From: Hydrurus foetidus
Lineage: Eukaryota
Length of the DNA stretch: 35,716 bases
Direction of reading: 5' to 3'
NCBI GenBank assembly: GCA_900617105.1
Contig: UYFQ01000789.1
Location: 1-35,716 of the forward strand
Below are positions 6,524 to 35,426 of this stretch, piece by piece. Position numbers and translations under genes: made by a program. Positions within the stretch are counted from its first letter, which is position 1; every line of letters begins with the position of its first letter. The notes beneath the pieces were generated by a model. It had not been told where the DNA came from. It searched no databases and saw only the letters and a list, made by a program, of their open reading frames with translations.

Positions 6524-6542
6524 GAACCTTGCCCATGACTGT

Positions 6543-8549: not shown

Positions 8550-10502
8550 TTGGGTTTAGCGAACTATTTTCGACAGTTTGTACCAATGCATTCCACTTTG
8601 GTTAAGCCAATGCAGGATATGATTGATCACTCTGCTCCGAGACGTTCTGCTGTAGTTTGGACTCAAAAGAGCACCAACTCATTTGTTGACACAAAGATTG
8701 CTATATCTCGTTGTCCATTAATGTACTTCATTGATGACAATAAGTTAGACATCCGCTTGTATACAGACGCATCCGACTTTGGTATCGGTGGAGTCTTATT
8801 CCAAGTTGTTGGTGCCATTTGGCAACCAATTGCTTTCATTAGCAAATCGTTGACACCCACACAAATAAGGTGGTCTACGATACAAAAAGAGGCTTATGCC
8901 ATCTTCTTTTGTTGTACACAACTCGATTATCTAATCAGAGATCGTACGTTCACTATCCATACGGATCATTTGAACATAACATATATGAAACAAAATCCTA
9001 CCTCAATGGTGGCGAGATGGTTCATTGCTATGCAAGAACTAGATTTTACCGTGGTATTCGTACCCGGTACTTCGAATGTTTTGGCAGACGCACTGTCAAG
9101 GCTTTGTCCTAATCTGACAGAAATTGCTCTGCCATTACGAACAGAAGAATTGGAATTACTTCCTACTTCATCATCGTCTTTCACTGTATCAGCTCTGACG
9201 GTCATAGAACCGGCTTCAGACGATCAGTTAGAATACATTCAAATGTGCCACAATGCAATTGTCGGTCACAACGGCGTAGACCGTACCCTTACTCGGTTGT
9301 TTAGTTTACAACAAGTATGGAAACACATGAAACAACATGTACGTACGTTCATACAGAACTGTCCGTGTTGTCAAAAGTTGAGTGCAAAAGATCCTAAGAT
9401 CAATGCGTCTCATTTTGCAACTTCAAATTATGCTATCTTCGATACGCTAAATGTTGACTATATTGGTCCATTTCCTGACAAAGGTTATATCCTAGTCATC
9501 ATCGATACATTCACACGATGGACAGAATTGTTCTGGTGTGCAGACGCAGATGCTAAATCAGCAGCTGACTGTTTGCTTGCGCATTTTGGTCGATTTGGAT
9601 CACCAAATATGATTAGATCTGATCGAGGATCACATTTCGCAAATGAATTGATCAAAGAATTCTTAGATCTTTGTGGAACACCACATAATCTCACCCTTGC
9701 TTACTCGAAACAAGAGAATGCAATTGTTGAAAGAGTCAACAAAGAGGTGAATAGACACTTAAGAGGTTTAGTTTTTGATAAACAAACCCTTGAGGGATAT
9801 GCTAAGTCAATCCCATTCGTGCAACGTATCATTAACGGTTCAGTTAATAGACGCACAGGTGTCTGTCCCGCTCATTTATTGTTCGGGAACAAACTTGATT
9901 TGAATCGTGGTATTCTCACTCCACACTTAAGTGTCGGAACACATTCAAGATCAACGTACATATCAGATTTGATAAGTGTACAAGACAAAGTACTTGAAAC
10001 TGCGGTTCAAACTTTGTTAAAAGCGGATGCTAAAAACGCCGCGTCAGCTGAATCAGCGACTGTGTTCCCCGTGGGGTCATATGTCTTATGCCGATACACT
10101 GATCGACCTCCAACTCGATTACATACTAAGTGGCATGGCCCTTACTGTATTGTCTCCTTTAAGGGGTCCGAGTACGTTCTCGCTAATCTTGTAAATCACA
10201 AGACACGAAGTGTTCACGTCAAAAATTTGAAAATATTCAATTATGACCCAGAGGTAGATATACCTGCTGACACTGCTCGTCGCGATTACATGGAGTTCGT
10301 GGTTGAGAAAGTTCTGGGTCACGCTGGTGACACCAAGAAACCGACTACAATGTCGTTCCATGTTAAATGGCTCAACTACGATGACTCTCATAATACATGG
10401 GAGCCGTGGAAATCACTACGGCTCTGTGAAGCACTCCATGATTATTTACGGGATAACAAAATGAAACATTTCATTCCCAGAAACATTGAGACATCAGCCT
10501 AA
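8550..10502 (+). CDS. pol: Gypsy RNase H-integrase-chromodomain
   Basis: YTDASDFGIGGVL, QKEAYAI, HTDH, ADALSR (RH); H-H-CC zinc finger, VDYIGP / SDRGSHF / VERVN (DDE); KWHGPY; chromodomain FVVEKVLGH...FHVKWLNYDDSHNTWEP. Confidence 0.95.
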   Translation: MGLANYFRQFVPMHSTLVKPMQDMIDHSAPRRSAVVWTQKSTNSFVDTKIAISRCPLMYFIDDNKLDIRLYTDASDFGIGGVLFQVVGAIWQPIAFISKSLTPTQIRWSTIQKEAYAIFFCCTQLDYLIRDRTFTIHTDHLNITYMKQNPTSMVARWFIAMQELDFTVVFVPGTSNVLADALSRLCPNLTEIALPLRTEELELLPTSSSSFTVSALTVIEPASDDQLEYIQMCHNAIVGHNGVDRTLTRLFSLQQVWKHMKQHVRTFIQNCPCCQKLSAKDPKINASHFATSNYAIFDTLNVDYIGPFPDKGYILVIIDTFTRWTELFWCADADAKSAADCLLAHFGRFGSPNMIRSDRGSHFANELIKEFLDLCGTPHNLTLAYSKQENAIVERVNKEVNRHLRGLVFDKQTLEGYAKSIPFVQRIINGSVNRRTGVCPAHLLFGNKLDLNRGILTPHLSVGTHSRSTYISDLISVQDKVLETAVQTLLKADAKNAASAESATVFPVGSYVLCRYTDRPPTRLHTKWHGPYCIVSFKGSEYVLANLVNHKTRSVHVKNLKIFNYDPEVDIPADTARRDYMEFVVEKVLGHAGDTKKPTTMSFHVKWLNYDDSHNTWEPWKSLRLCEALHDYLRDNKMKHFIPRNIETSA

Positions 10503-10829
10503 GTTGCTGATCTCGAACGTATTATCTTTTGAAGATTTTTCCTAATTTTTCCCTCTATGAGGTTTTTATGGTTTTAGTCAGTAAAAATCTGACATAATTA
10601 CGTATCGAGGTCTCGTGCGCAAGTACATGGTACTAGGCACCCACCTTATCGCCTCGACCGACCCACCACCAAGTCTATTTGTATAGGTTTTTATTTTTTA
10701 TTATACATTTCAATGTATTATTAGATTTACATATTTGTAATCTTTTTCTTTATTATTCCTTTAGTTAGTTTTAGCCTTATTAGATTTTTGTACAAAACGT
10801 GGTGGTCGCGTCATAGGTTCTTTTTCTTC

Positions 10830-10852
10830 AGAAAAAAGATAAGTGGGGGTGA
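10830..10852 (+). promoter_or_regulatory. Gypsy polypurine tract
   Basis: AGAAAAAAGATAAGTGGGGGTGA immediately before the 3' LTR. Confidence 0.85.
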
Positions 10853-11059
10853 TGTGGTCGGACCGGCTATACCGGGCCTACGGGCCGTACCGGACCTTGT
10901 CCCGATCCATCCGATCCTACCGCCTACTGTACACATACATCTCTAGCGCAGCTGCTAGCTAGCTCTAGCCTACTCGTAGAAGTTATCCTAGCTTCTAGCT
11001 TAGAGCCTGTAACTAACTAACACCTTTCCTCTATCGACCTATTTCCTATCCGGACTACA
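10853..11059 (+). repeat. Gypsy 3' LTR (207 bp)
   Basis: Direct repeat of 4306-4510, followed by TSD TAGG. Confidence 0.95.
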
Positions 11060-11881
11060 TAGGGAGGAGACATCAGTGTCAATAGATGTGTGCGGTAGTG
11101 TCGTGGTGGCGGCCGCATACCCCATTGTAGCCGCTGTGGGCGTAAAATTAGGTGCTTGATTAAGAGTGTGTGCTGTAAGGTCTCGGTAGTTTTGTCCCCC
11201 AACGAGTGGATGGGCGACTAGATAAGAGTCGATAGCATGATTGATATGCGGCTGAGTCTTGACCGCTTCACGAAAAAGGTGACACTTGTCGAGTTCCGAC
11301 AGAGGTTGTTGCGCCTCCGAGAACTGATCGTGGATTTCCTGGTGCATTCCGATGAAATCTTGAATGGATTCGTTGGGTGTCATGGGGAGTGACAGTTGAA
11401 GACGAAGGTGCGTAAAATCGCTGCGATTGAGTGTGCCATGGAGATCGGACAGATGTGTCATTATCGTGAGCGCGGGCACATTGAGAAGACCAAAGAAAGG
11501 ATCGTGGAGAAGAACGATATCCGCAGGCTGGACACTGGCGATGAGCTGCGCTTTGAGCGACCGTAGGTTGTCGGTGACTAAGATATTGTCGGCGAGGCGC
11601 CTCTCCCAGACTTTGATAGTGAGAGCTGTGGCATTGGCGGCTGGCGTGGCAGGAGTAGTGATGATGGGTCGGGGAGCTATTTGATTAGGCAAATCGGGGT
11701 CGGCGTTGGGGACGACATTGCCAGGAAGTTGTTGCCACTGGGTATCGTTGACGATAAATCCAAGCAGGCCATGCTGGTAAACTGTGGTACATGCAGCACC
11801 GTAGGCAGCGACGGCTGCACGATAGAACAACCGAAATTGCTGGCGAGGTTGATCCATGAGAGTCACCGGGAACGAGGCCAT
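11060..11881 (-). CDS. gag: Copia A gag, N-terminal 274 codons
   Basis: ATG 24 nt downstream of the putative LTR. Gag-like HGLLGFIV...IMTHLSDLHG. Reads ...DVSSL|LHSPAFAA across the excised insertion. Confidence 0.85.
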
Positions 11882-11893
11882 GACGACAGAAAG

Positions 11894-11904
11894 TTAAATC
11901 CAAC
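11894..11904 (-). promoter_or_regulatory. Copia A PBS-position sequence GTTGGATTTAA, complementary to its own LTR (11974-11984)
   Basis: Directly follows the LTR-terminal ACA on the minus strand. 11/11 complement (13/14 extended) to an LTR-internal site. No TGG. Confidence 0.65.
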
Positions 11905-12256
11905 TGTTGATGCTGCTGGTTGCTGGTTTGAATGCCGCACCAAATGTGAAACGAATGAACGTGTTTCACGAGTGTTGGATTTAAATTATGCGAGATGAGA
12001 GTCAATGCGCATGACTAACTGTTGGTGCGATTGAGAGTGTTTGGAAATGATAGTTGCGTACGATGTGGATTGTATGTACGACATGTACGACATGCTTGGT
12101 ATGTATGTACGACATGCTTGGTATGTACGCTGCGTACGGTGTGTGTTACATGTGCTGTACGTGCGCCATGATATGTACGGTGTGTGTTACATGTGCTGTA
12201 CGTGCGCCATGGTATGTACGGTGTGTGTTACATGTGTTGTACGCGCGCTATCAACA
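11905..12256 (-). repeat. Copia A putative 5' LTR (352 bp)
   Basis: 7-bp perfect terminal IR TGTTGAT/ATCAACA, just upstream of gag, size similar to the other Copia LTRs. Partner LTR not visible. Confidence 0.72.
12134..12245. repeat. 41-bp tandem repeat (~2.7 copies) in the presumed U3 of the Copia A LTR
   Basis: GTACGGTGTGTGTTACATGTGCTGTACGTGCGCCATGRTAT starting at 12134, 12175 and 12216. Confidence 0.9.
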
Positions 12257-12368
12257 TTTTATTCCAAAACCGTGAAAATAATCTTCTTTTTGCCTCAAAA
12301 TCCGGTTTTGGGGACTGTTCCGCAAAAAAAAATCGTTTTTATTTGCGGCTCCGTCGTATTATAGTTAT

Positions 12369-12734
12369 TGTCGGAATAACTGTGTGTTAAGTAACCGTAT
12401 AAGTCATTACGTATGTACGCTTGATGACGTTTCACCGTCGTGTGCTGTGTGGGGGTCGCTACTCCACACGGTCCAAGTTCTTTTTAACCCAGGAACATCG
12501 AAAGCAATGAAAGTACACCATGTTTGACTGTGTGGGACAGCGTGATCTTGTCGGCTGTCTCCATGAACAATGTAAGACACGTTGCATTGTTAATTACCTT
12601 TAACCTCACAAACAGCAGAACTTTCTCTTCGAGCCGAGTCAGTTGCTAGCTACTGTGCAGAAGTTGCAGAAGGAGAGCGTACGCAGGAAGATCTAGTGTG
12701 ACATTCAGTGAGTCTGAACGCCAACCGTACGACA
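12369..12734 (+). repeat. Copia B 5' LTR (366 bp)
   Basis: TGTCGGAATA...CGTACGACA; repeat of 18558-18923. Confidence 0.97.
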
Positions 12735-12744
12735 TAATTAACAA
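12735..12744 (+). promoter_or_regulatory. Copia B PBS-position sequence TAATTAACAA, complementary to its own LTR (12587-12596)
   Basis: Immediately after the LTR CA. Exact reverse complement TTGTTAATTA inside the LTR. No TGG. Confidence 0.7.
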
Positions 12745-12768
12745 AAGCTTTCGAACTTGCAACTTGCA

Positions 12769-13881
12769 ATGAAAGGCAGAGGCAGAGGCCGAGAGCACAA
12801 TCCCGCAGGCGGTCGAGCAAACCCTGCCAACAGTGGCAGAGGGAATGCTGGCCGCGGTGCGAAGCCTCCACCAAGAACAGGAACGGTAGCCGCGATCGGC
12901 GCATTCCTGGATCTTGGAAGAGAGATGAACCATGGTAGCGTAAGCGCATGGATGAGAAAGTTTCGCGAATACACACGCGCAAACTATAAGTCCGATATCT
13001 GCGAGATATTCGGCAATGAGGGCATACCGGGTACTTACCCGCAATATGTCGCTCCGGTAGACATACCTCTAGATGCTGGATTTATGGTCGCTACTAAATG
13101 GAAGAGAGCACTAGAGCTCTACGACAAGCTAGTCCTGACACTAAGGGAAGACCGAAAACAAGTTTTCGGTCTCATGCTGGGACAGATTAGCGAGCAATCA
13201 AAGTCAACAATAAGAGAAACGGAATCCGGCATCACGGCTATGCTAGAGGAGGACCCGCTATTGCTACTCCGAGCAATCATTCTGACCCACCTGTCAGACC
13301 CGAGACTAGGTGCGGATCAGAATTTGCTGAGAGTACGCATGGCGTACGAGACCGTGAGAATGGAGCCGAACGACGCGTTAAAATTCTACTACCAGCGCTT
13401 CAAAGCGCTGAAGACTGGTTACGAGGACACCATGCGTGCCCTAGGGGTCATGCCCGAATACAACGAGGCCATGACCGCCCACAACGAAATACTATCTGGG
13501 ATGAAGTTCATGAACGGGTTAAATTCAGGGTACCGTCATTATGTAGAGTACTACGAGCACAGGCTCAAAGATTGGCCAGACACTCTCGAGGACGCGTACC
13601 TCGAGATGGCCAAGGTAACACCGAAGAAAGCAGCAGCTGCTGCTGCAACACCACCCAACCAGACCAATGTTTTCGCGACGAAAACGGCTGGAGGTGAGAA
13701 ACCAGCGGAGAAAGGTAAAGCCAATGGGAACGGGGGCAGAGGGAAGGGTGGGCGTACGTCGTACGGCACCCGTCCCGGGAACTGTAATCAGTGTGGTGTA
13801 GCCGGACACTACTCTTACGAGTGCACGGCCAAGGATAGCCAAGCGGGTGCATCAGCACCCAGTGGAAAGTCGGTAAACTAA
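12769..13881 (+). CDS. gag: Copia B gag
   Basis: ATG at 12769, RG-rich N-terminus, C-terminal CCHC knuckle CNQCGVAGHYSYEC, TAA stop. Confidence 0.92.
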   Translation: MKGRGRGREHNPAGGRANPANSGRGNAGRGAKPPPRTGTVAAIGAFLDLGREMNHGSVSAWMRKFREYTRANYKSDICEIFGNEGIPGTYPQYVAPVDIPLDAGFMVATKWKRALELYDKLVLTLREDRKQVFGLMLGQISEQSKSTIRETESGITAMLEEDPLLLLRAIILTHLSDPRLGADQNLLRVRMAYETVRMEPNDALKFYYQRFKALKTGYEDTMRALGVMPEYNEAMTAHNEILSGMKFMNGLNSGYRHYVEYYEHRLKDWPDTLEDAYLEMAKVTPKKAAAAAATPPNQTNVFATKTAGGEKPAEKGKANGNGGRGKGGRTSYGTRPGNCNQCGVAGHYSYECTAKDSQAGASAPSGKSVN

Positions 13882-16589
13882 CCGAGATACATTATTCCTC
13901 ACCTGTACACTCACCCACACCCACACCCGTACATACCCACGCACTTACATTCCCCCACACCCTTATACACACACGCACCGATCCTCCATGTTTGGCTGAT
14001 TCCACTAGCGGAATTGAAACATGTGATCATATTGTTTTTAGTGCTAATACATGTAGTATATATAACACGATTAGAAGTAGACACATACTGCTTGATACAT
14101 GTGCTGGTGAGTCGGTATTCAACGACTCATCCCTGCTGCACAGCGTCGAACACGCACCCACACCCATGATTGTTAGCGGGGTGAATCCGAAAGGAAAACC
14201 GCTAATAATTAAGAAACGTGGGGTGTCGGCGTTCGGCAATGTGTATTATAGCCCTGACTGTGCTGGTAATATATTATCTTTTGGTAATGCTGTACGTGAC
14301 TGTACTGATGTTAAGTACTTACATGACTATGATTGTTACATAGTGCAAGATGTCAGCGGAAAATATTTTTATAGATTCTCACGAGATGAGACTATGAATA
14401 TATACCAATGCAATCTTGACACTATGGTAACAGAATGCATGCCAATATTAGTTACGACAGTAGAACAGAAGAAGAAGAAGTATACAGTGAGAGAAGTTAG
14501 AGACGCGTCGTTAGCTAGAGACTATCAGCGTAGATTAGGATACGCTAGCGCAGCACAGACTATTAAGTTGATATCCCAAGGGAATTTGACTAATAGCAAA
14601 GTGACTGCGCGAGACGTACATAGAGCCATTGATATATGGGGACCGGACGTGGGATCCCTTAAGGGGAAGACCACTAGTCACCAGGCCAAGTTAGAAGAGA
14701 AGTTACCATTGATAGGTATAGAGTACAAGACAGAACAAATCATGTACGTAGATATAATGTTCGTCAATCAGGTACCATATCTAGTATCAGTTGTTCAGCC
14801 TATCGAGTTCCTATACGTTAGCAAGTTAGCTAACAGAGAACACAAGAGCATATGGAACAGTTTAAAGACTTCATTAGCAAGCATGGTAAAGTACAGATTC
14901 AGAGTTAAAATGATCCGAGTAGATGGCGAGGGTGCAATTAACACAGAATGGTTTCACAACAAAGTCGGTTTAAGAGGTATAGTATTAGACGTTACCGGAG
15001 CCGGAGAAGCCGTAGCCGTAGTCGAGCGTAAGATACGACACATAAAGGAGAGAGTAAGATCAGTGATTAATTCTCTGCCATTCTCATTAAACGAGAAATT
15101 AGAAGTGTGGTTAGTTAAGTATGCAGTCAGTAGAATTGTATTAGCTCCCACACGTAACTCACTTAACCACATCAGTCCGAGAGAAAAATTAACCGGAAGA
15201 AAGTTAGACGTAGATAAGGAGATTAAACATGGTTTTGGTGATTATGTCCAAGTGCATAATGATGTCATCGATAACTCTACCAAACCAAGAACAGCCGGGG
15301 CCATAGCACTTATGAGCTCCGGTAATCTAGAAGGTTCATGGTACTATATGCTATTAGCTAACGAACGTATTGTTAAACGTACCAAAGCGACTGTACTACC
15401 CATGCCTGATGAAGTAATATTACACTTACATGTATTAGCTTCAAAAAGAAAACCTGCCAATATTAAACAGCCTGTATTAGAGAATAGTAGTCACGCTGTA
15501 TTCGATGATGACGACGATGTTGAAGATGATAGTGCTTATATTGGTGATGTCGAATATGAAACTGTCGATGAAAATGCTAACGTAAACTACACCGACGAGA
15601 TTATTGAAGATAACGACCACAATGATGACGACACATGTCTTGGATCACAACTCGACATATCTGATGAAAATCACCCACCCACATTAGATGAGTACGTAAA
15701 TGACACACTATATGTGAATGACAATACATCCGACAATGACGAACTATATTATGATGACACACATGATGATACACATGTACCCACACCGAAATGTGATCAA
15801 GCACTGATAGATGACATATTTGGCATAAGTGATGACGAAGATGACTTCGCTGATGTAACTGTACACCCTGAAGTATTCACCCCACCCGATACCATAATAG
15901 ACACCGCACATGACTCACCTGTTATTAACTCACCCGTGCTGCGTAGAAGTGGTAGAAATCACCAACTTGGTAAATGGGATAAGAAATATGTTGGTAATCT
16001 GTTCTACAACCACACTCACCTGTACAAAATGACTGTTAATGAAGGTATTAATAAGTTAGGGGTGATAGCTGTTGATTCCATTACATCTGAATTGAAACAA
16101 ATGTGTGATAAGAATGTTTGGGAAGGTGTAACTTATGAATCCCTCACCCCACAACAAAAACGCACCATTATACCTAGTAGCATGTTCTTGAAAGAAAAGT
16201 ATACTGCTGATGGTATGTTCGAAAAACTGAAATCTAGACTAGTAGCCGGTGGGCACTTACAAGATAGAGATGTTTATAATAACGGCGCATCACCTACTGC
16301 TAGCACATCTAGTGTATTCATACTGACTGCAATTGCTGCTAGACAGAAGCGTGCTGTTGCCACTGTTGACTTCCCCGGTGCATTCCTGAATAGTGATATG
16401 CCGCTGACCGGAGACCATGTTGTATACATGCGTCTGAACAAACAACTGACTGCGGCACTAATTAAATTGATGCCACATACAATAAATACATTAACAACAA
16501 TGGAACTTGTATTGTTAAACTTAAAAAAGCGTTATATGGATGCGTTGAATCTGCTAAGCTATGGTATGATAAACTATCCAGTGATTTGA
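13872..16589 (+). CDS. pol: Copia B pol (protease-integrase-RT N-part), -1 frame relative to gag
   Basis: Frame open from 13839. ILLDTCAGES (PR); YVDIMFV / RVDGEG / VERKIR (IN); KLKSRLVAGG, VDFPGAFL (RT). One-base slip near 16465. Confidence 0.92.
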   Translation, partial: GKLTEIHYSSPVHSPTPTPVHTHALTFPHTLIHTRTDPPCLADSTSGIETCDHIVFSANTCSIYNTIRSRHILLDTCAGESVFNDSSLLHSVEHAPTPMIVSGVNPKGKPLIIKKRGVSAFGNVYYSPDCAGNILSFGNAVRDCTDVKYLHDYDCYIVQDVSGKYFYRFSRDETMNIYQCNLDTMVTECMPILVTTVEQKKKKYTVREVRDASLARDYQRRLGYASAAQTIKLISQGNLTNSKVTARDVHRAIDIWGPDVGSLKGKTTSHQAKLEEKLPLIGIEYKTEQIMYVDIMFVNQVPYLVSVVQPIEFLYVSKLANREHKSIWNSLKTSLASMVKYRFRVKMIRVDGEGAINTEWFHNKVGLRGIVLDVTGAGEAVAVVERKIRHIKERVRSVINSLPFSLNEKLEVWLVKYAVSRIVLAPTRNSLNHISPREKLTGRKLDVDKEIKHGFGDYVQVHNDVIDNSTKPRTAGAIALMSSGNLEGSWYYMLLANERIVKRTKATVLPMPDEVILHLHVLASKRKPANIKQPVLENSSHAVFDDDDDVEDDSAYIGDVEYETVDENANVNYTDEIIEDNDHNDDDTCLGSQLDISDENHPPTLDEYVNDTLYVNDNTSDNDELYYDDTHDDTHVPTPKCDQALIDDIFGISDDEDDFADVTVHPEVFTPPDTIIDTAHDSPVINSPVLRRSGRNHQLGKWDKKYVGNLFYNHTHLYKMTVNEGINKLGVIAVDSITSELKQMCDKNVWEGVTYESLTPQQKRTIIPSSMFLKEKYTADGMFEKLKSRLVAGGHLQDRDVYNNGASPTASTSSVFILTAIAARQKRAVATVDFPGAFLNSDMPLTGDHVVYMRLNKQLTAALIKLMPHTINTLTTMELVLLNLKKRYMDALNLLSYGMINYPVI

Positions 16590-17782
16590 TTAAACTCAAT
16601 TATACTGCTAATGAATATGACATCTGCGTATTTAATAGAACTGAATCAGATAACACACAAACCTCACTCGTAATTCATGTTGATGATATGATTATCACTG
16701 CTTCAAATGAATCTCGCGTTGACGATGTTATTCAGCAAATTGAAACTATATACCCCGGTCTAACTAAACACCGCGGCAAAGTTTTAAACTATATAGGTAT
16801 GACATTTGACTTTACTAAGGCAGGCAGAGTCAAGATGACTATGGAGGGATTTGTGCAAGACCTCATTGAGGGGTGTAAGGATATGCCTGGCAAGGCTAAC
16901 ACACCTGCACAATCTAACCTATTCACTGTACCTAACGAATGTGACTCACCCTTACCCGACAACTTGCGTGAGCGTTTCCATTCTATTACAGCGAAGCTAC
17001 TCTATCTGAGCAAGAGGACGAGGCCAGATATTCTGACAGCCGTAGCGTTCCTGACCAAGAGAGTGACTAAGCCCCAAAGGGACGACTATAATAAGTTGAT
17101 CCGTACGGTACAGTACATACGGGATACCCAGAACTTGGGTGTAACATTTGAAGCACATGAACCTATACATGTGATTGCATATGTCGATGCATCCTTCGCC
17201 ATACATCCCGATATGAAAAGCCACACAGGTTGCGTAATTACCCTGGGAAAGGGAGCGATTTACGCCAAGAGCGGCACACAGCGCTTGATGACCAAATCAA
17301 GCACGGAAGCCGAGCTCGTTGCACTTAGCGACTCCGCCAACCAAGTGCTATGGACACGAAACTTCCTACACTGTCAAGGACACCACCAACCACCTGCACT
17401 AATCCATCAAGACAACCAGTCTACCATACAGCTGATTCGGAACGGACGTTCGAACAGCGAACGTACGCGCCATATCGACATACGGTACTTCTTCTTACAC
17501 GACAGACTGAGCACCGGAGACATCGACATTCAATACCTACCTACACAAGACATGACAGCTGATATCCTAACCAAGCCACTACAAGGGGAACTATTCCGTA
17601 AGCTCAGGAAGGAGCTATTAAACACCACCACCCCATCCGTCACCTACGCAGAAGGCTGCAAGACTGAGGATAGCGCCAACAGCACCGTGACTTACTCACG
17701 AACAAAAGCCAACTTCAACCCCAACTTCCCCTACCCATCTAAACCTACAACGACTCAACGAGGAGTCAAGAAGAGAAATTGA
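16466..17782 (+). CDS. pol: Copia B pol, RT C-part and RNase H
   Basis: KALYGCVESAKLWY, IHVDDMII, YVDASFA, KSSTEAELVA, HQDNQS, HIDIRYFF, ADILTKPLQG. Confidence 0.92.
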   Translation: MDATYNKYINNNGTCIVKLKKALYGCVESAKLWYDKLSSDLIKLNYTANEYDICVFNRTESDNTQTSLVIHVDDMIITASNESRVDDVIQQIETIYPGLTKHRGKVLNYIGMTFDFTKAGRVKMTMEGFVQDLIEGCKDMPGKANTPAQSNLFTVPNECDSPLPDNLRERFHSITAKLLYLSKRTRPDILTAVAFLTKRVTKPQRDDYNKLIRTVQYIRDTQNLGVTFEAHEPIHVIAYVDASFAIHPDMKSHTGCVITLGKGAIYAKSGTQRLMTKSSTEAELVALSDSANQVLWTRNFLHCQGHHQPPALIHQDNQSTIQLIRNGRSNSERTRHIDIRYFFLHDRLSTGDIDIQYLPTQDMTADILTKPLQGELFRKLRKELLNTTTPSVTYAEGCKTEDSANSTVTYSRTKANFNPNFPYPSKPTTTQRGVKKRN

Positions 17783-18029
17783 GACCCGGCCGATTCACAC
17801 CATCGAATCGACCACCCCTGTTGCCCCTGTCATGACTGCTACACCTACTGCTGCCCTGTCATACCTACTGCCATTTCCCGTCCGATCTGCTACCCCCCGT
17901 CATTTCTGCTGCCCTTCCAACATTACTGCTGCCCATCCTTCTTTACCTACTACCCGACTGCTGCGCGCACTATCAGGAGATGTACGTACGGACAACACGG
18001 ACAAGACGTGCCCACACCCCACTGCGAGA

Positions 18030-18232
18030 GGATCCTGACCCAAGGACCCCGGACCCGGAATCTGAGAGAACCCCACACTGGAGCGAGAATTTGGAGCTAG
18101 GACACCATGGAGCGAGATATCGGAGCGAGGAGTACCATGGAGCGAGAGCCATGGAGCAAACATCAGGAGCGAGGACCCTGGACCCTGAATCGGATTTATA
18201 TGGAGCGAGGACTCTGGACTGGACCCTGGATC
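18030..18232. repeat. Short imperfect repeats (ATGGAGCGAG, GGACCCTGGA) in the Copia B 3' non-coding region
   Basis: GGAGCGAG occurs about six times and GGACCC several times within ~200 bp. Confidence 0.7.
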
Positions 18233-18547
18233 GAAATTCAGATTCGATCACTTTAATCAATCAGAAAGCTGAGAGGATTTTTATAGCATACTATTGTTTG
18301 ACTATAAAATCACTCCCGCATTGTTTAACTCTACTGCTCGTACGGTTTCAGCCAGAACGTACGATACTAATATTACCCTGTGTGTACTAACGTATCTACC
18401 TTCACCCTAAAGGTCAACCTCACCATTACCTTAACTCCCTACCCTAAAACATCATGCTGTGATACATGACTCCTAGTCAAAGGAGCAATTTTGAATTTTA
18501 TCTTTGCGTTTTAATCATCCACATAGCCCCTACCCGACGACTCACGC

Positions 18548-18557
18548 CATAGGGGTG
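18548..18557 (+). promoter_or_regulatory. Copia B PPT-position motif CATAGGGGTG
   Basis: Abuts the 3' LTR; the same 10-mer precedes the Copia C 3' LTR. Confidence 0.75.
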
Positions 18558-18923
18558 TGTCGGAATAACTGTGTGTTAAGTAACCGTATAAGTCATTACG
18601 TATGTACGCTTGATGACGTTTCACCGTCGTGTGCTGTGTGGGGGTCGCTACTCCACACGGTCCAAGTTCTTTTTAACCCAGGAACATCGAAAGCAATGAA
18701 AGTACACCATGTTTGACTGTGTGGGACAGCGTGATCTTGTCGGCTGTCTCCATGAACAATGTAAGACACGTTGCATTGTTAATTACCTTTAACCTCACAA
18801 ACAGCAGAACTTTCTCTTCGAGCCGAGTCAGTTGCTAGCTACTGTGCAGAAGTTGCAGAAGGAGAGCGTACGCAGGAAGATCTAGTGTGACATTCAGTGA
18901 GTCTGAACGCCAACCGTACGACA
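18558..18923 (+). repeat. Copia B 3' LTR (366 bp)
   Basis: Repeat of 12369-12734, followed by TSD GTTAT. Confidence 0.97.
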
Positions 18924-19057
18924 GTTATGACCGGCACAATATACCGTTCATTCAACAACATGAAGGTCGAACTTGAAGTGCAGTCGTCACACGCTCATTG
19001 GCAGCAACTAACTCATCGAGGAGCATCCAAAGAAAATTAGTGCTGTCCTCGCCGGTC

Positions 19058-20755
19058 ATGCTGCTCTTCTCTCTTTACGCAGCTGGATTGCTGATCCAGG
19101 CCAGTGCGTACGGCAAATATGGATTCAATGGCTGGAAAAGCAGAGTAACCTCTTCTGGTATCTTACCTCCGAGGAGTTCAACGATATCTTCCGAGATCAG
19201 CATTTCTGACGCTCCAACAGATCCAAGAATCAAGAAAGTGGGTGTGGTCTTACTGGCGGGAGGAAAAGGGAAACGAATGAAGAGCACCGTACCGAAACAA
19301 TTTTTACCTTTGCTTGGGAAACCGGTATTTTTACGGAGTCTTGATATATTTCGATCGATGGAAGGAGTAGTGTCTGACATCGTCATCGTGCTCGATGAAA
19401 GCTATCGTGCGGAGTTCAATTACATTCTCCGAGAGGATCCGCGTATTTGTTGGGCTGACCCTGGAAATGAGAGACAAGACTCCGTTTTTAATGGTCTTCA
19501 TGCGATACCTGATACATGCTCAATTGTTGCGATTCACGATGCTGCGAGACCGTTGGTAACAGTCAAGGAGATTCTGAATGTCCTAAAAGATGGACTATTG
19601 CATGGTGCCGCCGTACTAGGAGTACCAATGAAGGCGACCGTGAAAGAATCTGAGGACGGTCAGTTCGTTTTGAGAACTGTGGAGAGAAGTCGATTGTGGG
19701 AAATTCATACCCCGCAGGTAGCATCGAAATCACTATTTCTAGAGGGATTCGCCAAAGTTAAAGCAGAGAATCTCGAAGTGACTGATGACGTCAGCGTGAT
19801 AGAGGCCTTAGGCAAACCAGTGAAGCTAACGTTAGGAGAGTACACAAATATTAAATTGACAACTCCCGACGATTTGCAAGTTGCAGAACAAGTTCTTCGT
19901 GAAAGAGGAGTTGAAGAGGTCACAGCTGCTGCACTTGTAGAAGAGGCTCAAATTGCGGTTGTTGAGGAGGTCACAGCTGCTGCACTTGTAGAAGAGGCTC
20001 AAATTGCGGTTGTTGAGGAGGTCACAGCTGCTGCACTTGTAGAAGAGGCTCAAATTGCGGTTGTCGAGGAGGTCACAGCTGCTGCACTTGTAGAAGAGGC
20101 TCAAATTGCGGTTGTTGAGGAGGTCACAGCTGCTGCACTTGTAGAAGAGGCTCAAATTGCAATTGTCGAGGAGGTCACAGCTGCTGCACTTGTAGAAGAG
20201 GCTCAAATTGCGGTTGTTGAGGAGGTCGCAGCTGCTGCACTTGTAGAAGAGGCTCAAATTGCGGTTGTTGAGGAGGTCACAGCTGCTGCACTTGTAGAAG
20301 AGGCTCAAATTGCGGTTGTTGAGGAGGTCACAGCTGCTGCACTTGTAGAAGAGGCTCAAATTGCGGTTGTTGAGGAGGTCACAGCTGCTGCACTTGTAGA
20401 AGAGGCTCAAATTGCGGTTGTTGAGGAGGTCGCAGCTGCTGCACTTGTAGAAGAGGCCCAAATTGCGGTTGTTGAGGAGGTCACAGCTGCTGCACTTGTA
20501 GAAGAGGCTCAAATTGCGGTTGTTGAGGAGGTCGCAGCTGCTGCACTTGTAGAAGAGGCTCAAATTGCGGTTGTCGAGGAGGTCACAGCTGCTGCACTTG
20601 TAGAAGAGGCTCAAATTGCAATTGTTGAGGAGGTCACAGCTGCTGCACTTGTAGAAGAGGCTCAAATTGCGGTTGTTGAGGAGGTCACAGCTGCTGCACT
20701 TGTAGAAGAGGTGAAAATTGCTGCTGCAGTCGTATCGCGTAAAATCTACTTTTGA
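19058..20755 (+). CDS. ispD: 2-C-methyl-D-erythritol 4-phosphate cytidylyltransferase (MEP pathway), plastid-targeted, with a long tandem-repeat C-terminal tail
   Basis: VLLAGGKGKRM, PKQFL, GNERQDSV, IHDAARP, LWEIHTPQ, VTDDVS, NIKLTTPDDL. First ATG at 19058 gives signal peptide MLLFSLYAAGLLIQASA-Y followed by an S/R-rich transit-like stretch. Confidence 0.93.
   Translation: MLLFSLYAAGLLIQASAYGKYGFNGWKSRVTSSGILPPRSSTISSEISISDAPTDPRIKKVGVVLLAGGKGKRMKSTVPKQFLPLLGKPVFLRSLDIFRSMEGVVSDIVIVLDESYRAEFNYILREDPRICWADPGNERQDSVFNGLHAIPDTCSIVAIHDAARPLVTVKEILNVLKDGLLHGAAVLGVPMKATVKESEDGQFVLRTVERSRLWEIHTPQVASKSLFLEGFAKVKAENLEVTDDVSVIEALGKPVKLTLGEYTNIKLTTPDDLQVAEQVLRERGVEEVTAAALVEEAQIAVVEEVTAAALVEEAQIAVVEEVTAAALVEEAQIAVVEEVTAAALVEEAQIAVVEEVTAAALVEEAQIAIVEEVTAAALVEEAQIAVVEEVAAAALVEEAQIAVVEEVTAAALVEEAQIAVVEEVTAAALVEEAQIAVVEEVTAAALVEEAQIAVVEEVAAAALVEEAQIAVVEEVTAAALVEEAQIAVVEEVAAAALVEEAQIAVVEEVTAAALVEEAQIAIVEEVTAAALVEEAQIAVVEEVTAAALVEEVKIAAAVVSRKIYF
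19913..20722 (+). repeat. Coding minisatellite: 51-bp unit (EEVTAAALVEEAQIAVV), 15 full copies plus 1 degenerate
   Basis: Units start at 19913, 19964 ... 20678 (period 51) and are near-identical. Confidence 0.97.
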
Positions 20756-21104
20756 AAGCGATCTCAGTAGATTAAAAAATTACATTTTTGAAAAGAATTA
20801 CTATCTCTGCTTATGAGGAGCATTTTGGTTAACCATGGACTACTAGATCAAATATGTGATTGTTAAGTATGAAACTGAGCTAAGCTACATGCCATTTTTA
20901 AGGAGGCGAATGACATATACTAGTCAAAATAATATTATCGCCGGTCAAAATATTATTATAAGGGAGCTGAAAATTGTGAATCCCACAACTTTCTTGCTGC
21001 CGAATCGATAGGAATTTCCGTCCAGGGCGGCGCTATCATCAAAGAACCAGGCAATTCTGCACATGGAACCCTCGCAGCGCTTGAAATGAAACAAAATCGA
21101 AGTT

Positions 21105-22094
21105 TTACAGATAGCCCAATGTGCCGTCTAGAGATCTGATGCTTTGCATGTCCGCATCGTCCAGGAACACCCGCATTGCTTCGTCCCGTATCCCGTTGCT
21201 GATCGGTCTCGCATTTTCGATTAGGTGGGGTCTGGTTGATGCTCGTGGAATTGCCACCACCTGCTCTTGGAGAAGCCAAGATAAAACCACATTGGACACA
21301 GTTGTGTCGTGCTTCAGAGCTATTTGGTTAAGGACTTTACTTGAGAACACAGGATTTTCGGCAAATTTCCCTTGCCACTGGGTTCCGAAGCTGGAATAAG
21401 CCATGTAAATAATGTTGTTTTCAGTTGCAAACTGACGCGTCTCGAAATCTTGATGGAAGGGATCCATCCAGTTTTGAACAATGGTCACTTTGGCTGTGGT
21501 AATCTCGAGCAGCTCCTCCAACCGTGCTTTATCAAAATTGGAGACTCCGACAGCTGAGATTTTCCCCATCTCCATCTGATCCACAAGATTTTTCCAACCG
21601 ACTTGCCATGAAATGGATTCTTCTTCCGGAGTGCAATGACCAGGCCAGCACGTTGGCGCATGTAGAAGCACTACGTCGAGAGTGGAGGTGGAATCGCCAT
21701 TGATTGAATTGCTCGATGCAAGCAGGGATGCTTCCATTTTCATCTTCTCGAAGGAGCGGGGATGGACTTTTGTGATGACAACAATTGATTCTTTATTGAC
21801 TTCAGGTGAAAAGCGGAGAAAATCTTGCATGCCTTCACCAACTCCTCGTTCATCATACCATTCCGGTGCCTGAGCAGTGTCTATAAGGCGCACTCCTGCT
21901 ATAAGCGAGGCGTGTGTAATGTGGGATGTTTGTGAACCGAGACCAGCTGTCCCGAGTCCTAGTCGTGGAATGCGGAGGCCAAGCGTAGATGATGGAAATG
22001 TCAATGAAATCAGTTGCCTGTTCTCCTCGACAACATCCACTGATGCAGCAGCTGCGCAGACAACAAGCAAGCCGAGAAAAATTGCTCTGGTCAT
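21105..22094 (-). CDS. Aldo/keto reductase family protein with N-terminal signal peptide
   Basis: IPRLGLGT, LIDTAQ...Y, ITKVHP, VVLLHAP (D-Y-K-H tetrad), AVGVSNF, AYSSFG, AIPRAS...HLIEN; hydrophobic N-terminus. Confidence 0.92.
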   Translation of the reverse strand: MTRAIFLGLLVVCAAAASVDVVEENRQLISLTFPSSTLGLRIPRLGLGTAGLGSQTSHITHASLIAGVRLIDTAQAPEWYDERGVGEGMQDFLRFSPEVNKESIVVITKVHPRSFEKMKMEASLLASSNSINGDSTSTLDVVLLHAPTCWPGHCTPEEESISWQVGWKNLVDQMEMGKISAVGVSNFDKARLEELLEITTAKVTIVQNWMDPFHQDFETRQFATENNIIYMAYSSFGTQWQGKFAENPVFSSKVLNQIALKHDTTVSNVVLSWLLQEQVVAIPRASTRPHLIENARPISNGIRDEAMRVFLDDADMQSIRSLDGTLGYL

Positions 22095-22328
22095 GGCACA
22101 ATTATTAATTATTCTTATCTCGAAGGAGGAAGTGAGTCGAAGGAAGGCTCCGTTGGACGTTGGACCAGTTTTGCGTAAATACCGTCTCCGAAACTATTAC
22201 GGGCTGGTGTCACCAAGAAAGGCAAAAAAAATCAAGCTATAACAGTTTTGAGTTTTAAGAATATTAGGTGGTGAAGCAGTCAGATTATGAGTGATTAGGC
22301 CTGTAGATTGGGAGCATGAATGCTCAAA

Positions 22329-24909
22329 TTAGTTCTCTTGCACGAAGCTACGGTCGATTTCCATGATGTTGCGATGAGTGCTTTGTTTCGTCCGCATGCG
22401 CTCTAAATCCTGATATGATGGAGCACTTGTTCCAACTCGAGATCCAAGAGCAATATAGAGACGTATGTAATCCCGTGCTCGTCTTTGAAATTTGAAGACT
22501 CGACTGATAGGTAGAATGATCTTACTCCGGCAGAGAGCCTTGACTCTCTCAATGAATTTTACGCCAGCCTCTAACTTCACTGCCGAATCGTTCTGTTTTC
22601 TTTGCTCGAACTTTAGCTTGCCCCAGCCATATTCGATGCCGCCTCCTGCAGTTTCTGGAGTGCATACGACAGAAGGTAGGAGAATATGGCCTCGAGATTC
22701 TACCGTTTGCTGCAGAGCGGTCTTTTCGTACTGGAAGTCTGGACACGATGCTAGTACAGCGTGTGCATCCAAGGCTGGAGAGATGATTCTGTGATTGTTC
22801 CCTTTCATCTCGAACTTTTCTCGGGCACTTTGTTTTTGTCTTCCGAGCATGTGTGGAACATATTTACCCCTCTCGTAAAGAATCTGTGATCATTGACAAA
22901 GTTGACTTAATTGTGCATGAGGATAGCAAATGATCTCAATGGCAGCTCACCTGAAATATCCCCTTGTTTTTACCAATATATCCAGGGTGCACATATTCTT
23001 CAGCGGCTTCCACGTCTGGACCAAGTGTGCTGTTGGAGGAATCCTTACGCTTTTTTCTCTTCGCCATTTCTTTGGCTTCTTCCTCCTCGTTCATTGGAAC
23101 ATCATGCGGTCGCGCATTTGGATCGAGGAATGGTGGAGGATCGCCTTCAACGAATATCATTCGCTGAATCATTCCTATCTGTAGCCGGCGCCCATTGATC
23201 AGAGGTACGTCTTCTCCGAGGCATCATTCCTCAATGATGGAATCTCGCTTCGGCGTGGTCTTCCCACCCCATCTTAAACCCATAGCATTTACCATCAAAC
23301 CGTTTGATTGTTCTTTTAGGTGATCAGAAGAATGATCAACCTCCAGCAGGATCTGCATGTCCGGATGCAGTATCTCAATGACGTTAATAAAATCGTTACA
23401 CTGAGCCTGAAATAGTGCACCATCCCAGTATCCTTCTTTGTTTTTACCGTATTGAAAGAAGACTAACCCAGGTGATTCTCCAGCCTCAATGGGCTTCAAC
23501 TCATTTGTCAGTGCTCTCTCAGTATTCACCACATCTATCTCCATTTGACTCAGCTGCAATCCGAATCCTCTCCACTCATCCCACACTGCGCTAAGCATCG
23601 TGCCTTGTCCCTCTGTTTTTGGTCTCAATTTAGATCTTCCAAGACATGTCCAATAGTGCGATGGCAGTGCATTCTGCTTGAAGACTGCCTCATCTTGGCC
23701 AAGGTGATACAACGGTGAGTTGCACTTGCAGATTGACTGATCATGTCTGTGTCGACACTTGAATAATGCCCATTCGGGAGTACCTATCGCGAAGAAGTAT
23801 TCACCTGGCCGTGCGTGAACTCGCAACATGCTCAACCTGTACTGCTCATGTGTGTCCTCATTGAGAAAATCGACGTGCACTTTTATCGTAGGGTGAGGGT
23901 CTTCCTCTGTTGCAATTGGAACAGCCGTCGGGAAGCCACCAGCTATCAATGCAGCACTTCTATTTTGGAGAGCCTCCGCAGTAGCTGACGATAGAGGAAT
24001 ATTGACCCATACCGGCAGTCGAAGTGAATGCAGCATCTGGTCGGGACCGTAGCGCTTCCTAAAATCTTCTTTAGTTTCGTCAGATTCGTGTGAGTCTGTA
24101 TAGTAACAAACCGATGCCTTCGTGTATTTACATCCATTCTTGATCATCCAACGATGGACAGTGCTCCTCGATAATGGTAGCAAATCACTCAATGCCTTTT
24201 TCCCTTTGTCACTTTCGGGAGGACTCGACTCTAGTATAAACATGAGATTCTTTCTGGCCTCGTCAACAGACAGATGCTTCTCGTTCTTCAAGTACAGCAC
24301 AAATCGTCTGGTGTAGTCATACTCATCAAGAAAATTTCTTCTCTCATAGCATCCGCGTAGATCTTCTTTGAATAGACCATACTCTTTGAATTCATTGTAC
24401 CACTTGCGAATTATGACTGCTGGTACCATTTTCTCTGATTCTAAATACACATCGTTCACAATAGATCCCATAGAGTTCTTTATTTTAAAGTCAATTTTTT
24501 TCTTCAGACTATCTGCGACACCGAGCTGCATCTCCGAGAACGTAGTAGCCGATTGTATTTGCTGTAAACATCCTTCGATGACTACCATTTCCTCTCTCGA
24601 TCGTTGGTTCAGCCGAAGACACACAGATAGAGTCATCATGGATTGCACTGACAGTCATGACATCTGCTCCTTCGATGTATTCTGCAACGTACACTCCTCT
24701 TTCTCCTTCTTACCCTCTTCGACGAACTTCGCTTTCATAAGTAAAGAAAAGATCTCGTTTTTGAAAAAGGCTTTTCTTAGCTTACTGATATGCAACTTTG
24801 CAGCTGCTATTGATGTCATCAGTAACTTAGTCCTCTCTCTCATATACTGCACCGCATTGTCTATAGTTTTTTCTTTGTCTTCATCCAATGGCGACTCCAG
24901 TCCTCTCAT
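22329..24909 (-). pseudogene. Decayed IS630/Tc1/mariner-related DDE transposase with one spliceosomal intron
   Basis: LSRSTVHRWM, YYTDSHE, GQDEAVF, PKTEGQG, YGKNKEGYW, VDHSSDH, KGIFQ|ILYERG, DFQYEKTALQ...RGH...PE...IEYGWGKLK. In-frame TGA at 24655 and 23224. TIRs not found. Confidence 0.72.
22884..22950 (-). other. 67-nt GT-AG intron in the transposase gene
   Basis: CAG|GTGAGC ... ATCACAG|ATT. Splicing joins the 22936-23172 and 22329-22850 frames and restores the KGxxQxLxERG motif. Confidence 0.8.
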
Positions 24910-25208
24910 AAGTAATAGATGACTCGTTCGTGGATCCCTACAAAAAGCTCTCTTTGAGCGCTCGCTGGCACACTCATCAGCGTATAAGGTGTCCTATGCT
25001 GCTCTAGACATAGGGACTGTATCTGACTGCCGTGAGGTCTTGCAGAATAAGTTTTATTTCCACCGCAGCATTCTCTTTACAGCTTTGCTAACGCATCCAT
25101 AACTGCCTCTTCTACGTTAGCGATGAGTAGCATTTCTGGAAGACTTCTGCCCCAGGTTTTTGACGAAAGTTGATAGTCGCTTCCCTGCATCAAGGTACCA
25201 GAGCAGAA

Positions 25209-25745
25209 TGTTGGAGATAGTATCTTAGAGTCCGTTCGGCAGAAACGGTGTTTTCAAACTCGAATGCAGAGTTTCGGGGAAATACAGCATAAATCGAAGT
25301 ACAGTAAAAAGTCGAATATGCAAAACTCTGCATTTTGATGGATACAGAGTTTTTTTCGGTGTGTCGAGCGCAAAGAAATAAATGGAAATATTCTGCATTG
25401 CAAGAATACAGTTTTTCTGCAGAGTTTTTCTGTGCCACCGAACGAACCCTTAGTATATGGCACGAACACAATCTGTGTACTCACGTATCCGTACATACGT
25501 ACGGATCATTACGTGTGAGCATATGTGACGACGATGATGAATGGACCCGAGCAATGTCTCTGTAGGATTGCATGTTGTCATTGCATTTAAATGGATTTGT
25601 GGACCGTATTGAGTAATACGGCACTGTCTAATTAACAAGTGATTACTGAAATTCCATCGCTTATTTCACGAGCCCTGGCCGAGTGATCTTCAGCAACTGT
25701 ACTGCGAGAGGCGTACGTAACTGTCAAACCAAAGATCCGTCAACA
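25209..25745 (+). repeat. Copia C 5' LTR (contains a MITE insertion)
   Basis: Matches 30340-30648 once 25228-25449 and one TTA are removed. Confidence 0.93.
25228..25449. mobile_element. 222-bp Tourist-like (PIF/Harbinger) MITE
   Basis: TIRs GAGTCCGTTCGG / CCGAACGAACCC (10/12), TSD TTA, absent from the sister LTR. Confidence 0.88.
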
Positions 25746-25754
25746 TAATTAGAC
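25746..25754 (+). promoter_or_regulatory. Copia C PBS-position sequence TAATTAGAC, complementary to its own LTR (25626-25634)
   Basis: Immediately after the LTR CA. Exact reverse complement GTCTAATTA inside the LTR. No TGG. Confidence 0.65.
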
Positions 25755-25770
25755 TGGCAGCGGCATTTCA

Positions 25771-28700
25771 ATGCCTCTCAAACGTGCCGCGGAAGCTTTT
25801 AAAAGGACAGAGGAGTGTATTATGCAATACGGCAAATATAACAACATCATCAAATGGAGAGAACATATGCAAACAGTAGTAACGGAACTATACGGGATCG
25901 TGGGGATGTTCTTCACCACTGACGTGAGATACGAGCTCCCGAGAGTTTCCTACAGAGACTATCCAGCTCGAGCTCTGAGGAGGACGAAGAGATAGTCGAG
26001 GGTCAAGCAGAGCCAGTACCTGACCCAGAGGCCGCAGCATACGCCGCTGCGAGACCGGCACGCATCGCCGCTAGACTGGCGAGAAACGAGAGGAGACGTA
26101 AATCATCAGAACGCTTGCGAACGAAATATAAGGAAGACGACTACATCCAAAGAAAGAGGGACCTCAAAACACAACGCGAGAACGAACGTACGATGTACCC
26201 TATGATGTGGAAGCGCATGTCGCTCATGTCCCAGAGTAGGGTACGGGAGGAGGAAGAGTACAAAACGGAATACCTTACTTTGGACTGCGTACTTCTATGG
26301 ACACTGATAAGGAAGACTCACCTTACACACATGTTCGGTGACAACGCCACACTGAAAGAATTCAACCAACACGAGCAGGAGAGTAAGTACGGGTCACTCA
26401 GGCAAGGCGAGAAAGAGCACATCGTCACATTCAAGAATAGGTTCGACGATTAGGTAGCAGCAAATCTTGCCGTGGGGATAGCACTCGTGTCAGAGTCGAA
26501 GAGGGCACTCGACTTTCTAGGAAAGCTCGACACAAGGAGATAAAAGACCATGAAGAAAGATGCACTACGCCGGAAGCCCGGTGCGTTTCCGACCACACTC
26601 GCCTCAGCCTTCCACATCGCATCCCAATGGAACGACGGGGGTGTCATGTCCACACCCACAACACCACCGCGCCTTGCCTGAGTGACCCGTACTTACTCTC
26701 CTGCTCGTGTTGGTTGAATTCTTTCAGTGTGGCGTTGTCACCGAACATGTGTGTAAGGTGAGTCTTCCTTATCAGTGTCCATAGAAGTACGCAGTCCAAA
26801 GTAAGGTATGCCGTTTTGTACTCTTCCTCCTCCCGTACCCTACTCTGGGACATGAGCGACATGCGCTTCCACATCATAGGGTACATCGTACGTTCCACAC
26901 CCACAACGCTGCGTACGTTACCGACGAAGGTGCACACGTCACAATGACTAAGGACCAGGAAAAGAAAGCGGGGAAAGCCGGGGGGTGAACAAGAAATCCC
27001 TAGCTGATGTCGAATGTTTCAAATGTGAAACGAAGGGGCACTACGCCAGGAACTGTCCGCAAAGATAACCATCAGCAGATGAAGTACACGTAACGGTGGC
27101 GGAATCGGACAGCGAGTATGAGGGCGAGTCAAGCGAATGGGGAGTAGCACTCGTAACAGCTGTTGAGAGATGTTGCTTCACTCAATACGTCGTGCTACTG
27201 GACAACGAGGCTTCGTTGAACATTTTTAAGAACGCGGAGCTACTGACCGACTAGAGAAAGACAGAGAGATCGATCAATGTCAGTGGGATTCAGCAGGGAG
27301 GAGGGGTGTGCGTCGACCGAGAAGGAGAATTCGGGGAGTTTGGGACGGTTTACTACAGTGGATCTGCCTCCGCCAATATTCTTTCATTCGCTTCGCAAGT
27401 CGATGCAGGAGCAACAATCAGATACGACCACCTGAACGACTGCTTCACTCTTCAGCCGAAGGGAAGCACTAGGATATATCGCTTTGGGAGGAAGCGAGTC
27501 ATTGGAAGCGAGGGTCGCTTCTACTCCTGTGACTGGAGAGAAGTGGAGCTGGAGAAAGCCCTAGTGACTACGGTGGTTGAAAATTTGAAGGCGTTCAAGA
27601 AACGCGAGATAGTGCAAGCAAGACGTGCTCGTGAATTACTAGCAAGAATGGGCTTCCCGACAGTGGAACAAGTGATGTCTATCATCAACAGCGGGAGCAA
27701 CTTCGACGTGACGGCAAGGGACTTTCAGATCGCGGACGCGATATGGGGGAAGGATGTCACTTCGCTGAAAGGGAAAACAACCAAGCGAGCTACAGCAGTC
27801 GCTGATATCACCATCAGCACGAAAATCGCACAAAGAGATCAGGTGCTTTCGATCGATGTTATGTTCTTAGACAAATTATCTATACTAGTTGGGATAGCTA
27901 CTCCGTTGGGACTAACCATAGCGTACGGTCTTAACACAGCCGATCTGAAGAAACCAGCAAGGACGGCAGCTCAAGTCAAAGTCGGGATCAATCATTTCCT
28001 CGGAGTGCTCGCCTCCCAGAACTTCAGGACCTCCGTGATTATGAGCGACGGCGAGGGCGCAGTCACGAGCCTTGTCGACGAATTGGGGAAAGTCGGAGTC
28101 GAAGTAGATGTGAGTGGAGCGGGAGGCCACGTAGCTAGGATTGAAAGAAGAATTCGAGTAATTCAAGAAAGAGTTCGATCTCACGTGGCGTATCATTTCC
28201 CATTTACTTTGTCGACCGTGGGCATAGCTATGTGTGTGATGTACTGTGTCTCGAGGCTGAACTATGAACCGGCTGGGTTACGGGAATGGGGCCCCAGCCC
28301 CCGCGAGGCCTTCATAGGGAGAAAGCCGGATGGAAAGAGAGATTTCCGCTGTTCTTTTGGGGATTATGCACAGTGCACTGTGCCAAACACAGACGCGGGT
28401 CTCAAGGGTCGAACCGAAAACTGTGTTGTGATGCTCCCACTTGGAAATAGGACTGGTAGCGTGAGAATGCTATCACTCAGAACAGGACGGCTAGTCAATA
28501 GGGATCAGTTCCGAATATTACCGATGCCAGAGTCAGTTATAAAGCGACTGAATGAACTAGCGCTTGCCGACGGGAGAGTGAAGGGGAAGGGTGAGCTGTA
28601 CACACGACCCCCTTCGTAAGAGCAGGGCGGTGATGCAAGGAAGGGATTACCGGACCATCAACAATGGAGTCGATTCATCGATCCCACCATTAGAGAACGA

Positions 28701-30271: not shown

Positions 30272-30339
30272 ATTAGATTTAATTAAGATTCATGCATGAT
30301 AAGCATATGTAGTAACGATTGTAGTGTCGCATAGGGGTG

Positions 30340-35389: not shown

Positions 35390-35426
<37 letters not shown>

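Follow-up and report, generated by a model that had tools for sequence, protein, structure and literature searches.

How does a retrotransposon start reverse transcription when no tRNA-binding site follows its long terminal repeat (LTR)? The question is raised by a stretch of 35,716 nucleotides of Hydrurus foetidus DNA (contig UYFQ01000789.1, hereafter the window), which holds three Copia-order elements, A, B and C, and one chromodomain Gypsy element. An earlier note on this DNA had remarked that the bases following the 5' LTR of each Copia element are complementary to a site in that same LTR, and had proposed that the elements prime themselves. In this study, we followed up this proposal in the window, in metagenome relatives and in contigs from sequencing runs, where the A, B and C families are high-copy in one organism. 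Our analysis indicates that reverse transcription of A, B and C is probably primed by the 5' end of the element's own RNA, in place of a tRNA; this is the best explanation of the pairing. The predicted self-priming is well supported in the A lineage, whose relatives show covariation, and has moderate support in B and C, from the window and close copies.

Pairing of the predicted primer-binding site with the LTR

All six motifs behind the proposal were located at the coordinates given for them, and each predicted primer-binding site (PBS) begins at the first base after the CA of the 5' LTR. The exact complement spans 11 nt in A, 10 nt in B and 9 nt in C (PBS 25746-25754), with gaps of 69, 138 and 111 nt between the two arms, respectively (Table 1). 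Dinucleotide-shuffled LTRs reached the observed anchored pairing in 1/5000 cases for A, 2/5000 for B and 8/5000 for C. The nested Gypsy element, a control without self-pairing, gave 5 nt only in the same anchored test (2097/5000 shuffles). Moreover, each PBS pairs over only 3-6 nt with the LTRs of the other three window elements. The end of the B LTR at 12734 is set by the identical LTRs and the target-site duplication (TSD), as well as by contigs of other insertions that diverge there, and the end of the C LTR is set by its 99.3% identical pair.

None of the three PBS starts with TGG. The statement that TGG is absent after the LTR holds in this sense for base 1, but A has TGG at PBS bases 3-5. 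This triplet is not kept: among 36 distinct PBS of the A lineage (see below), TGG is found within the first 11 nt in one and at base 1 in none. As previously described, B and C share a TAATTA core with covarying flanks; they differ from base 7 on, and each fits its own LTR. The helix has a probability of 0.97 in the predicted leader fold of A, 0.98 in that of C and 0.21 in that of B. Neither tRNA genes (ARAGORN) nor Rfam matches at gathering score were found in the window.

Two further observations concern these sequences. The C LTR holds the complete 10-nt PBS sequence of B at 25629-25638, overlapping the C primer segment, partly because the palindromic core is shared. Behind the 5' LTR of the nested Gypsy element, TGG and an LTR complement are both absent; instead, a perfect 10-nt palindrome that occurs once in the window lies at 4511-4520.

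Covariation across relatives of Copia A

Relatives of A were collected by a metagenome scan with an integrase alignment, and the best 80 of at least 596 confirmed stretches were analyzed. A fixed rule, applied without individual inspection, excluded 31 of these loci, which either lacked a start of gag in the interval 1350-2000 nt upstream of the integrase match or had less than 100 nt before it, and left 49 testable. For each locus, every CA or TA within 350 nt of the gag ATG was considered, and the longest perfect complement beginning at the next base gave the pairing score. A perfect complement of 10-15 nt was present in 37 of the 49 testable relatives, as compared with 19/980 shuffles, and one of at least 9 nt in 41, as compared with 58/980. 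With a wider search window or one mismatch allowed, four of the remaining eight loci also pair (L040 at 11/11; L028, L050 and L067 at 10/11).

The 41 paired loci collapse to 36 distinct PBS 11-mers, none of which has TGG at its start. At PBS positions 3, 4, 5, 6, 7 and 8, each of the four Watson-Crick pair types is present, and on an integrase tree of the 36 and A (37 elements), positions 1-9 have each changed 6-17 times. When every PBS was compared with foreign LTRs, a complement of at least 9 nt was found in 1/1332 comparisons. Complementarity with covariation across the family, which had been put forward as a check on the proposal, is borne out for the A lineage. The helix probability exceeds 0.5 in 37/37 members, a set preselected for at least nine pairs.

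In L067 (TSD AGTAT), L008 and L045, a second LTR copy fixes the LTR end independently of the pairing. In addition, the LTR end found by the pairing matches the 5' end of the LTR as an inverted repeat at 4 or more of 6 bases in 19 of 20 A-lineage loci with a visible polypurine tract (PPT). Only 4/37 members have a T immediately 3' of the LTR arm, where it could extend the pairing into the terminal A of the LTR.

LTRs end in TA rather than CA in 12/37 members of the A lineage, with at least eight state changes on the tree. Both LTRs of L067 (5051-5264 and 10413-10625) end in TCAATA, inside the 5-bp TSD. An A-like contig in run X13 carries one PBS change, and the LTR partner is not visible there.

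An initiator-like motif and the predicted primer

In 34/37 A-lineage members, a CAHW motif upstream of the LTR arm has its third base 14-17 nt, and most often 15-16 nt, away from the predicted cut, as compared with 696/3706 at control offsets. Diatom transcription is reported to start at CAY+1A and TCAH+1W (PMC4686930). Because of the spacing of CAHW, the A primer would be about 15-16 nt long with a short unpaired 5' end; if CAHW is the initiator, 2-6 unpaired 5' bases are expected in 30 of the 34 members. The start of A transcription, which had been predicted near 11984, would probably lie 4-5 nt further upstream by this motif. In B, the third base of CATT is 12587, the first paired base, and in C the third base of CACT lies 2 nt before the helix; transcription would accordingly start at 12586-12587 in B and at 25623-25624 in C.

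Evidence for Copia B and Copia C

Contigs of four sequencing runs were aligned to positions 12550-12790. In close B copies, all covering contigs of three of the four runs have T at 12745, which adds an 11th pair, with A12586. A genome-contig scan for the B/C lineage gave two loci, L081 and L082, at 29-30% identity; of the LTR, about 55 nt are present in L081 and none in L082. The PBS starts are similar, being TAATTA in B and C and TTATTA in the distant relative L081. Viral-contig scans found no relative. Both loci sit in two bacterial metagenome-assembled genome records and are probably mis-binned eukaryotic repeats.

Copia membership and lineages

The pol order of Copia (protease, integrase, reverse transcriptase (RT), RNase H) is found in the order of the open reading frames (ORFs), the integrase motifs in the alignments, and the RT and RNase H motifs. 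An integrase homologue (P0190) carries PF00665; the Pfam scan did not detect the integrases of the window elements themselves. The RTs match PF07727 (RVT_2) with 70 bits in C, 33 and 47.7 bits in B, and 29.9 bits in A (E 5e-7, slightly below the cut-off of 31.6). An LTR pair with TG...CA ends and a TSD is complete in B; A has a single LTR, and its relatives are complete. Integrases of B and C are 34-36% identical and their RTs 36-53%, and the RT of A is 23-25% identical to that of B or C. Hence, of the three Copia families announced by the earlier note, the three elements stand, but they represent only two lineages, with B and C related and A distant by RT identity.

Gag and pol are separated by an in-frame stop in A and by a frame change in B. 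The A gag ends with an in-frame TGA (4035-4037, minus strand) directly before pol. This junction could be seen in 64 A relatives (loci L001-L079), of which 52 have at least 100 open in-frame codons upstream. The stop is TGA in 45, TAG in 18 and TAA in one, and GGG begins 6-8 nt past it in 57/64 (background, 52/2752). The stop followed by GGG looks like a conserved stop-readthrough signal, a context that may be akin to gammaretroviral readthrough.

Anatomy of the window and neighbouring genes

The coordinates of all features are collected in Table 1. No 3' LTR of A lies within the window, where 211 nt remain past the A pol stop. A frame break is found inside the B RT, and no TSD is visible around C. 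A 226-bp inverted duplication (26184-26409 and 26670-26895, 99.6% identical) lies inside the C gag. A short PPT ending in GGGTG is common to B (18520-18557), C (30327-30339) and 20/37 A-lineage members, and that of B closes a possible hairpin (CCCCTA...TAGGGG).

The host is supported as a stramenopile, in line with the earlier assignment of the elements to stramenopile lineages, by the IspD gene, whose closest named relative belongs to Ochromonadaceae (76%; other named algae, 62-66%). One named relative of the A integrase is also from Ochromonadaceae (48%), and the host is thus likely to be a chrysophyte (golden alga). In the C-terminal tail of IspD, an acidic repeat unit of 51 bp (17 residues) recurs about 16 times (19910-20721); this array may be an assembly expansion, as the closest database match is 318 aa long.

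Table 1. Features of the window and their coordinates.
Feature	Position	Strand	Remarks
Copia A, 5' LTR	11905-12256	-	352 bp; inferred from TGTTGA...TCAACA inverted ends and relatives with the same termini
A, initiator-like CATA	11987-11990	-	predicted transcription start 11988-11989; from the CAHW motif position across the lineage
A, predicted self-primer segment	11974-11984	-	11 nt; exact complement
A, predicted PBS	11894-11904	-	exact complement of 11974-11984
A, gag 5' part	11060-11881	-	split by the Gypsy insertion; resumes 4305-4038, stop 4035-4037
Chromodomain Ty3/Gypsy, nested in A gag	4306-11059	+	4-bp TSD TAGG
A, pol	212-4034	-	protease and integrase at 4034-1995; RT-RNase H follows at 2503-212 in a different frame
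Copia B, whole element	12369-18923	+	two identical 366-bp LTRs, 5-bp TSD GTTAT
B, 5' LTR	12369-12734	+	366 bp, identical to 3' LTR
B, initiator-like CATT and predicted self-primer	12585-12596	+	CATT 12585-12588, overlapping primer 12587-12596
B, predicted PBS	12735-12744	+	exact complement of 12587-12596
B, gag and pol	12742-17782	+	gag 12742-13881; pol 13839-16589 and 16466-17782; protease, integrase, RT, RNase H
B, PPT and 3' LTR	18547-18923	+	PPT ends AGGGGTG at 18557; 3' LTR 18558-18923
Copia C, whole element	25449-30648	+	LTR pair 99.3% identical
C, 5' LTR	25449-25745	+	first 12 nt missing
C, initiator-like CACT and predicted self-primer	25622-25634	+	CACT 25622-25625; primer 25626-25634
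C, predicted PBS	25746-25756	+	9 exact pairs, T:T mismatch, then one C:G pair
C, coding remnants	25923-30271	+	broken gag; integrase 27255-28619; RT 29081-30271; RNase H mostly missing
C, 3' LTR	30340-30648	+	309 bp; after PPT AGGGGTG
IspD gene	18977-20755	-	N-terminal signal-like leader
PIF/Harbinger-like DDE transposase	33004-34107	+	PF13359
476-codon ORF	23224-24654	-	no Pfam match; may be another transposase
Low-complexity TG-rich satellite	34794-35716		

Weighing self-priming against other explanations

We observed complementarity, a register on the first post-LTR base, compensated variation in the A lineage and a fixed upstream motif. This complementarity system is real and most likely functional, and self-priming is likely because A relatives keep the pairing while its letters change. 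In the mechanism that we propose, transcription would start at the initiator-like motif, and the RNA 5' end would loop over R-U5 and pair with the PBS. Cleavage where the paired segment ends on its 3' side, a step carried out in Tf1 by the RNase H of the element, would leave a 3'-OH adjoining the LTR end, from which RT would extend the primer into minus strong-stop DNA. The predicted primer would have 10-12 nt and be nearly fully paired in B and C; in the A lineage, it would be about 15-16 nt long and leave 2-6 bases unpaired at its 5' end.

Covariation demonstrates pairing, not priming. The helix could thus be real and selected as a leader structure acting in packaging, dimerisation or translation control, with another RNA as the primer or a primer that binds elsewhere. 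Fungal GalEa Copia elements keep a hairpin of unknown role at the PBS position, and the TAATTA core of B and C is palindromic like their CHSeq1 (PMC5445492). However, the helix described here begins at the first post-LTR base and ends there, which is the register that a primer requires; moreover, the GalEa partner lies downstream, without an LTR complement, whereas here it lies within the LTR (PMC5445492). For these reasons, we consider a purely structural role unlikely. Priming by a tRNA half or fragment, as in Osser, Bryco and Bianca, with an LTR complement that merely shields or copies the PBS, would apply mostly to B and C. Half-tRNA priming is common in Copia (PMC6317226), the PBS of B, C and L081 start alike, and A has the internal TGG mentioned above. 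Yet lineages primed by tRNAs keep to a fixed PBS type or a few of them (PMC6317226), whereas the A lineage has 36 that track their own LTR; B and C diverge from base 7 on, each fitting its own LTR, and the TGG of A is not retained in its relatives, all of which makes a tRNA fragment quite unlikely. Chance or AT-rich palindromes might be invoked at least for B and C, whose helices are short, AT-rich and, by shared ancestry, not independent, but the shuffles of both LTRs and the contrast of 37/49 with 19/980 in the A lineage render this very improbable.

Several points weigh against self-priming. Four of the 49 testable A relatives (L012, L014, L053 and L054) show no pairing, with 102-391 nt present upstream of gag. 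The tallies of pair types and folds were drawn from elements preselected for at least nine pairs, a step that removed only 8/49 loci, and the data in which the CAHW motif was counted are those in which it had first been noticed. If the A lineage starts at CAHW, its first bases would be unpaired, unlike those of Tf1. In B, the helix is weak (-7.3 kcal/mol), with the low probability given above in the full leader fold, and the variants T12591C (four contigs), A12596T (two contigs) and a 1-base insertion in the PBS (two runs) have no partner change listed. Finally, the genome-contig and viral-contig scans yielded no B/C-lineage relative with an intact LTR, so that covariation in this lineage comes from B versus C alone.

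Altogether, self-priming by the RNA 5' end remains our preferred explanation. A broader proposal, which we advance tentatively as possible rather than probable, is that self-priming is shared by two stramenopile Copia lineages with a deep split between them (RT about 25% identical), one of which uses a primer of new build: 15-16 nt fixed by the initiator, an unpaired overhang and a freely drifting paired part. If true, together with the plant TAR Copia and the Tf1 group, self-priming would have been repeatedly invented, or would be an old Copia state later replaced by tRNA priming. Its range would widen to stramenopiles, as the rule in divergent algal Copia, which bears on the proposal that hairpin priming is older than tRNA priming in LTR elements (PMC3601003). 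The model predicts exact start and cut sites, implies that the RNase H of Copia is able, like that of Tf1, to cleave an RNA duplex, and would explain why such elements would escape PBS-based annotation.

Comparison with known systems

To our knowledge, Tf1 is the only element for which self-priming has been proven, and predictions of it concern a few groups. Capy is said to have made an earlier proposal, in 2005, for Houba and Osr-1. The mechanism is not new, nor is this its first report in Copia: the earlier note knew of no description for Copia, but self-priming has been predicted in 89% of 203 plant TAR Copia elements (Neumann et al., 2019; PMC6317226), and the same article cites it for Houba and Osr-1. 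What would be new here is the extension to stramenopile hosts, to two Copia lineages far apart from each other and to a primer whose 5' end is predicted to be unpaired. No description of self-priming stramenopile Copia was found in the literature covered, which lacks most subscription journals and Repbase/GyDB entries.

The TAR elements share the Copia superfamily with ours. By the criterion used for them, an LTR complement of at least 10 bp starting 0-5 bp past the 5' LTR (PMC6317226), A and B qualify and C, with 9 nt, falls one short. In contrast, TAR is a plant lineage whose elements mostly (79%) have a single gag-pol ORF (PMC6317226), whereas the present elements are stramenopile, with a stop in A and a frame change in B, and their RTs score near the PF07727 cut-off (29.9-70 bits). 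Membership in the plant TAR lineage was rejected on host and ORF layout, as the nearest named IspD is from Ochromonadaceae and gag and pol are separated.

A and B/C may resemble the diatom CoDi groups. Among the three Atlas clusters nearest to the B RT-RNase H, one is commonest in diatoms (phylum known for four members). Placed apart from the main Copia clade, CoDiI and CoDiII are likewise divergent stramenopile Ty1/copia lineages (Maumus et al., 2009; PMC2806351); the main text of that article has neither 'tRNA' nor 'self' and does not discuss priming. The fungal GalEa elements are also Copia without a tRNA PBS and have a palindromic core there, but their partner lies 12-41 bp downstream and the authors found no LTR complement (PMC5445492). 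By eye, no downstream partner of this type was seen in the 25-45 nt past the B or C PBS.

A close parallel in mechanism is found in Tf1/Tf2 of Schizosaccharomyces pombe and in the Tf1/sushi and Tcn1 chromoviruses, where the PBS follows the 5' LTR directly, about 11 bases pair with the LTR of the same element and no tRNA site is present. The Tf1 transcript anneals to its PBS through bases 1-11 and is cleaved by RNase H between bases 11 and 12 (PMC7175516). Unlike Tf1, which is a Ty3/Gypsy element whose priming was proven by experiment, the elements described here are of Copia order, with the integrase before the RT and PF07727 matches, their priming is predicted from sequence, and in the A lineage 2-6 bases located 5' of the helix would be left unpaired.

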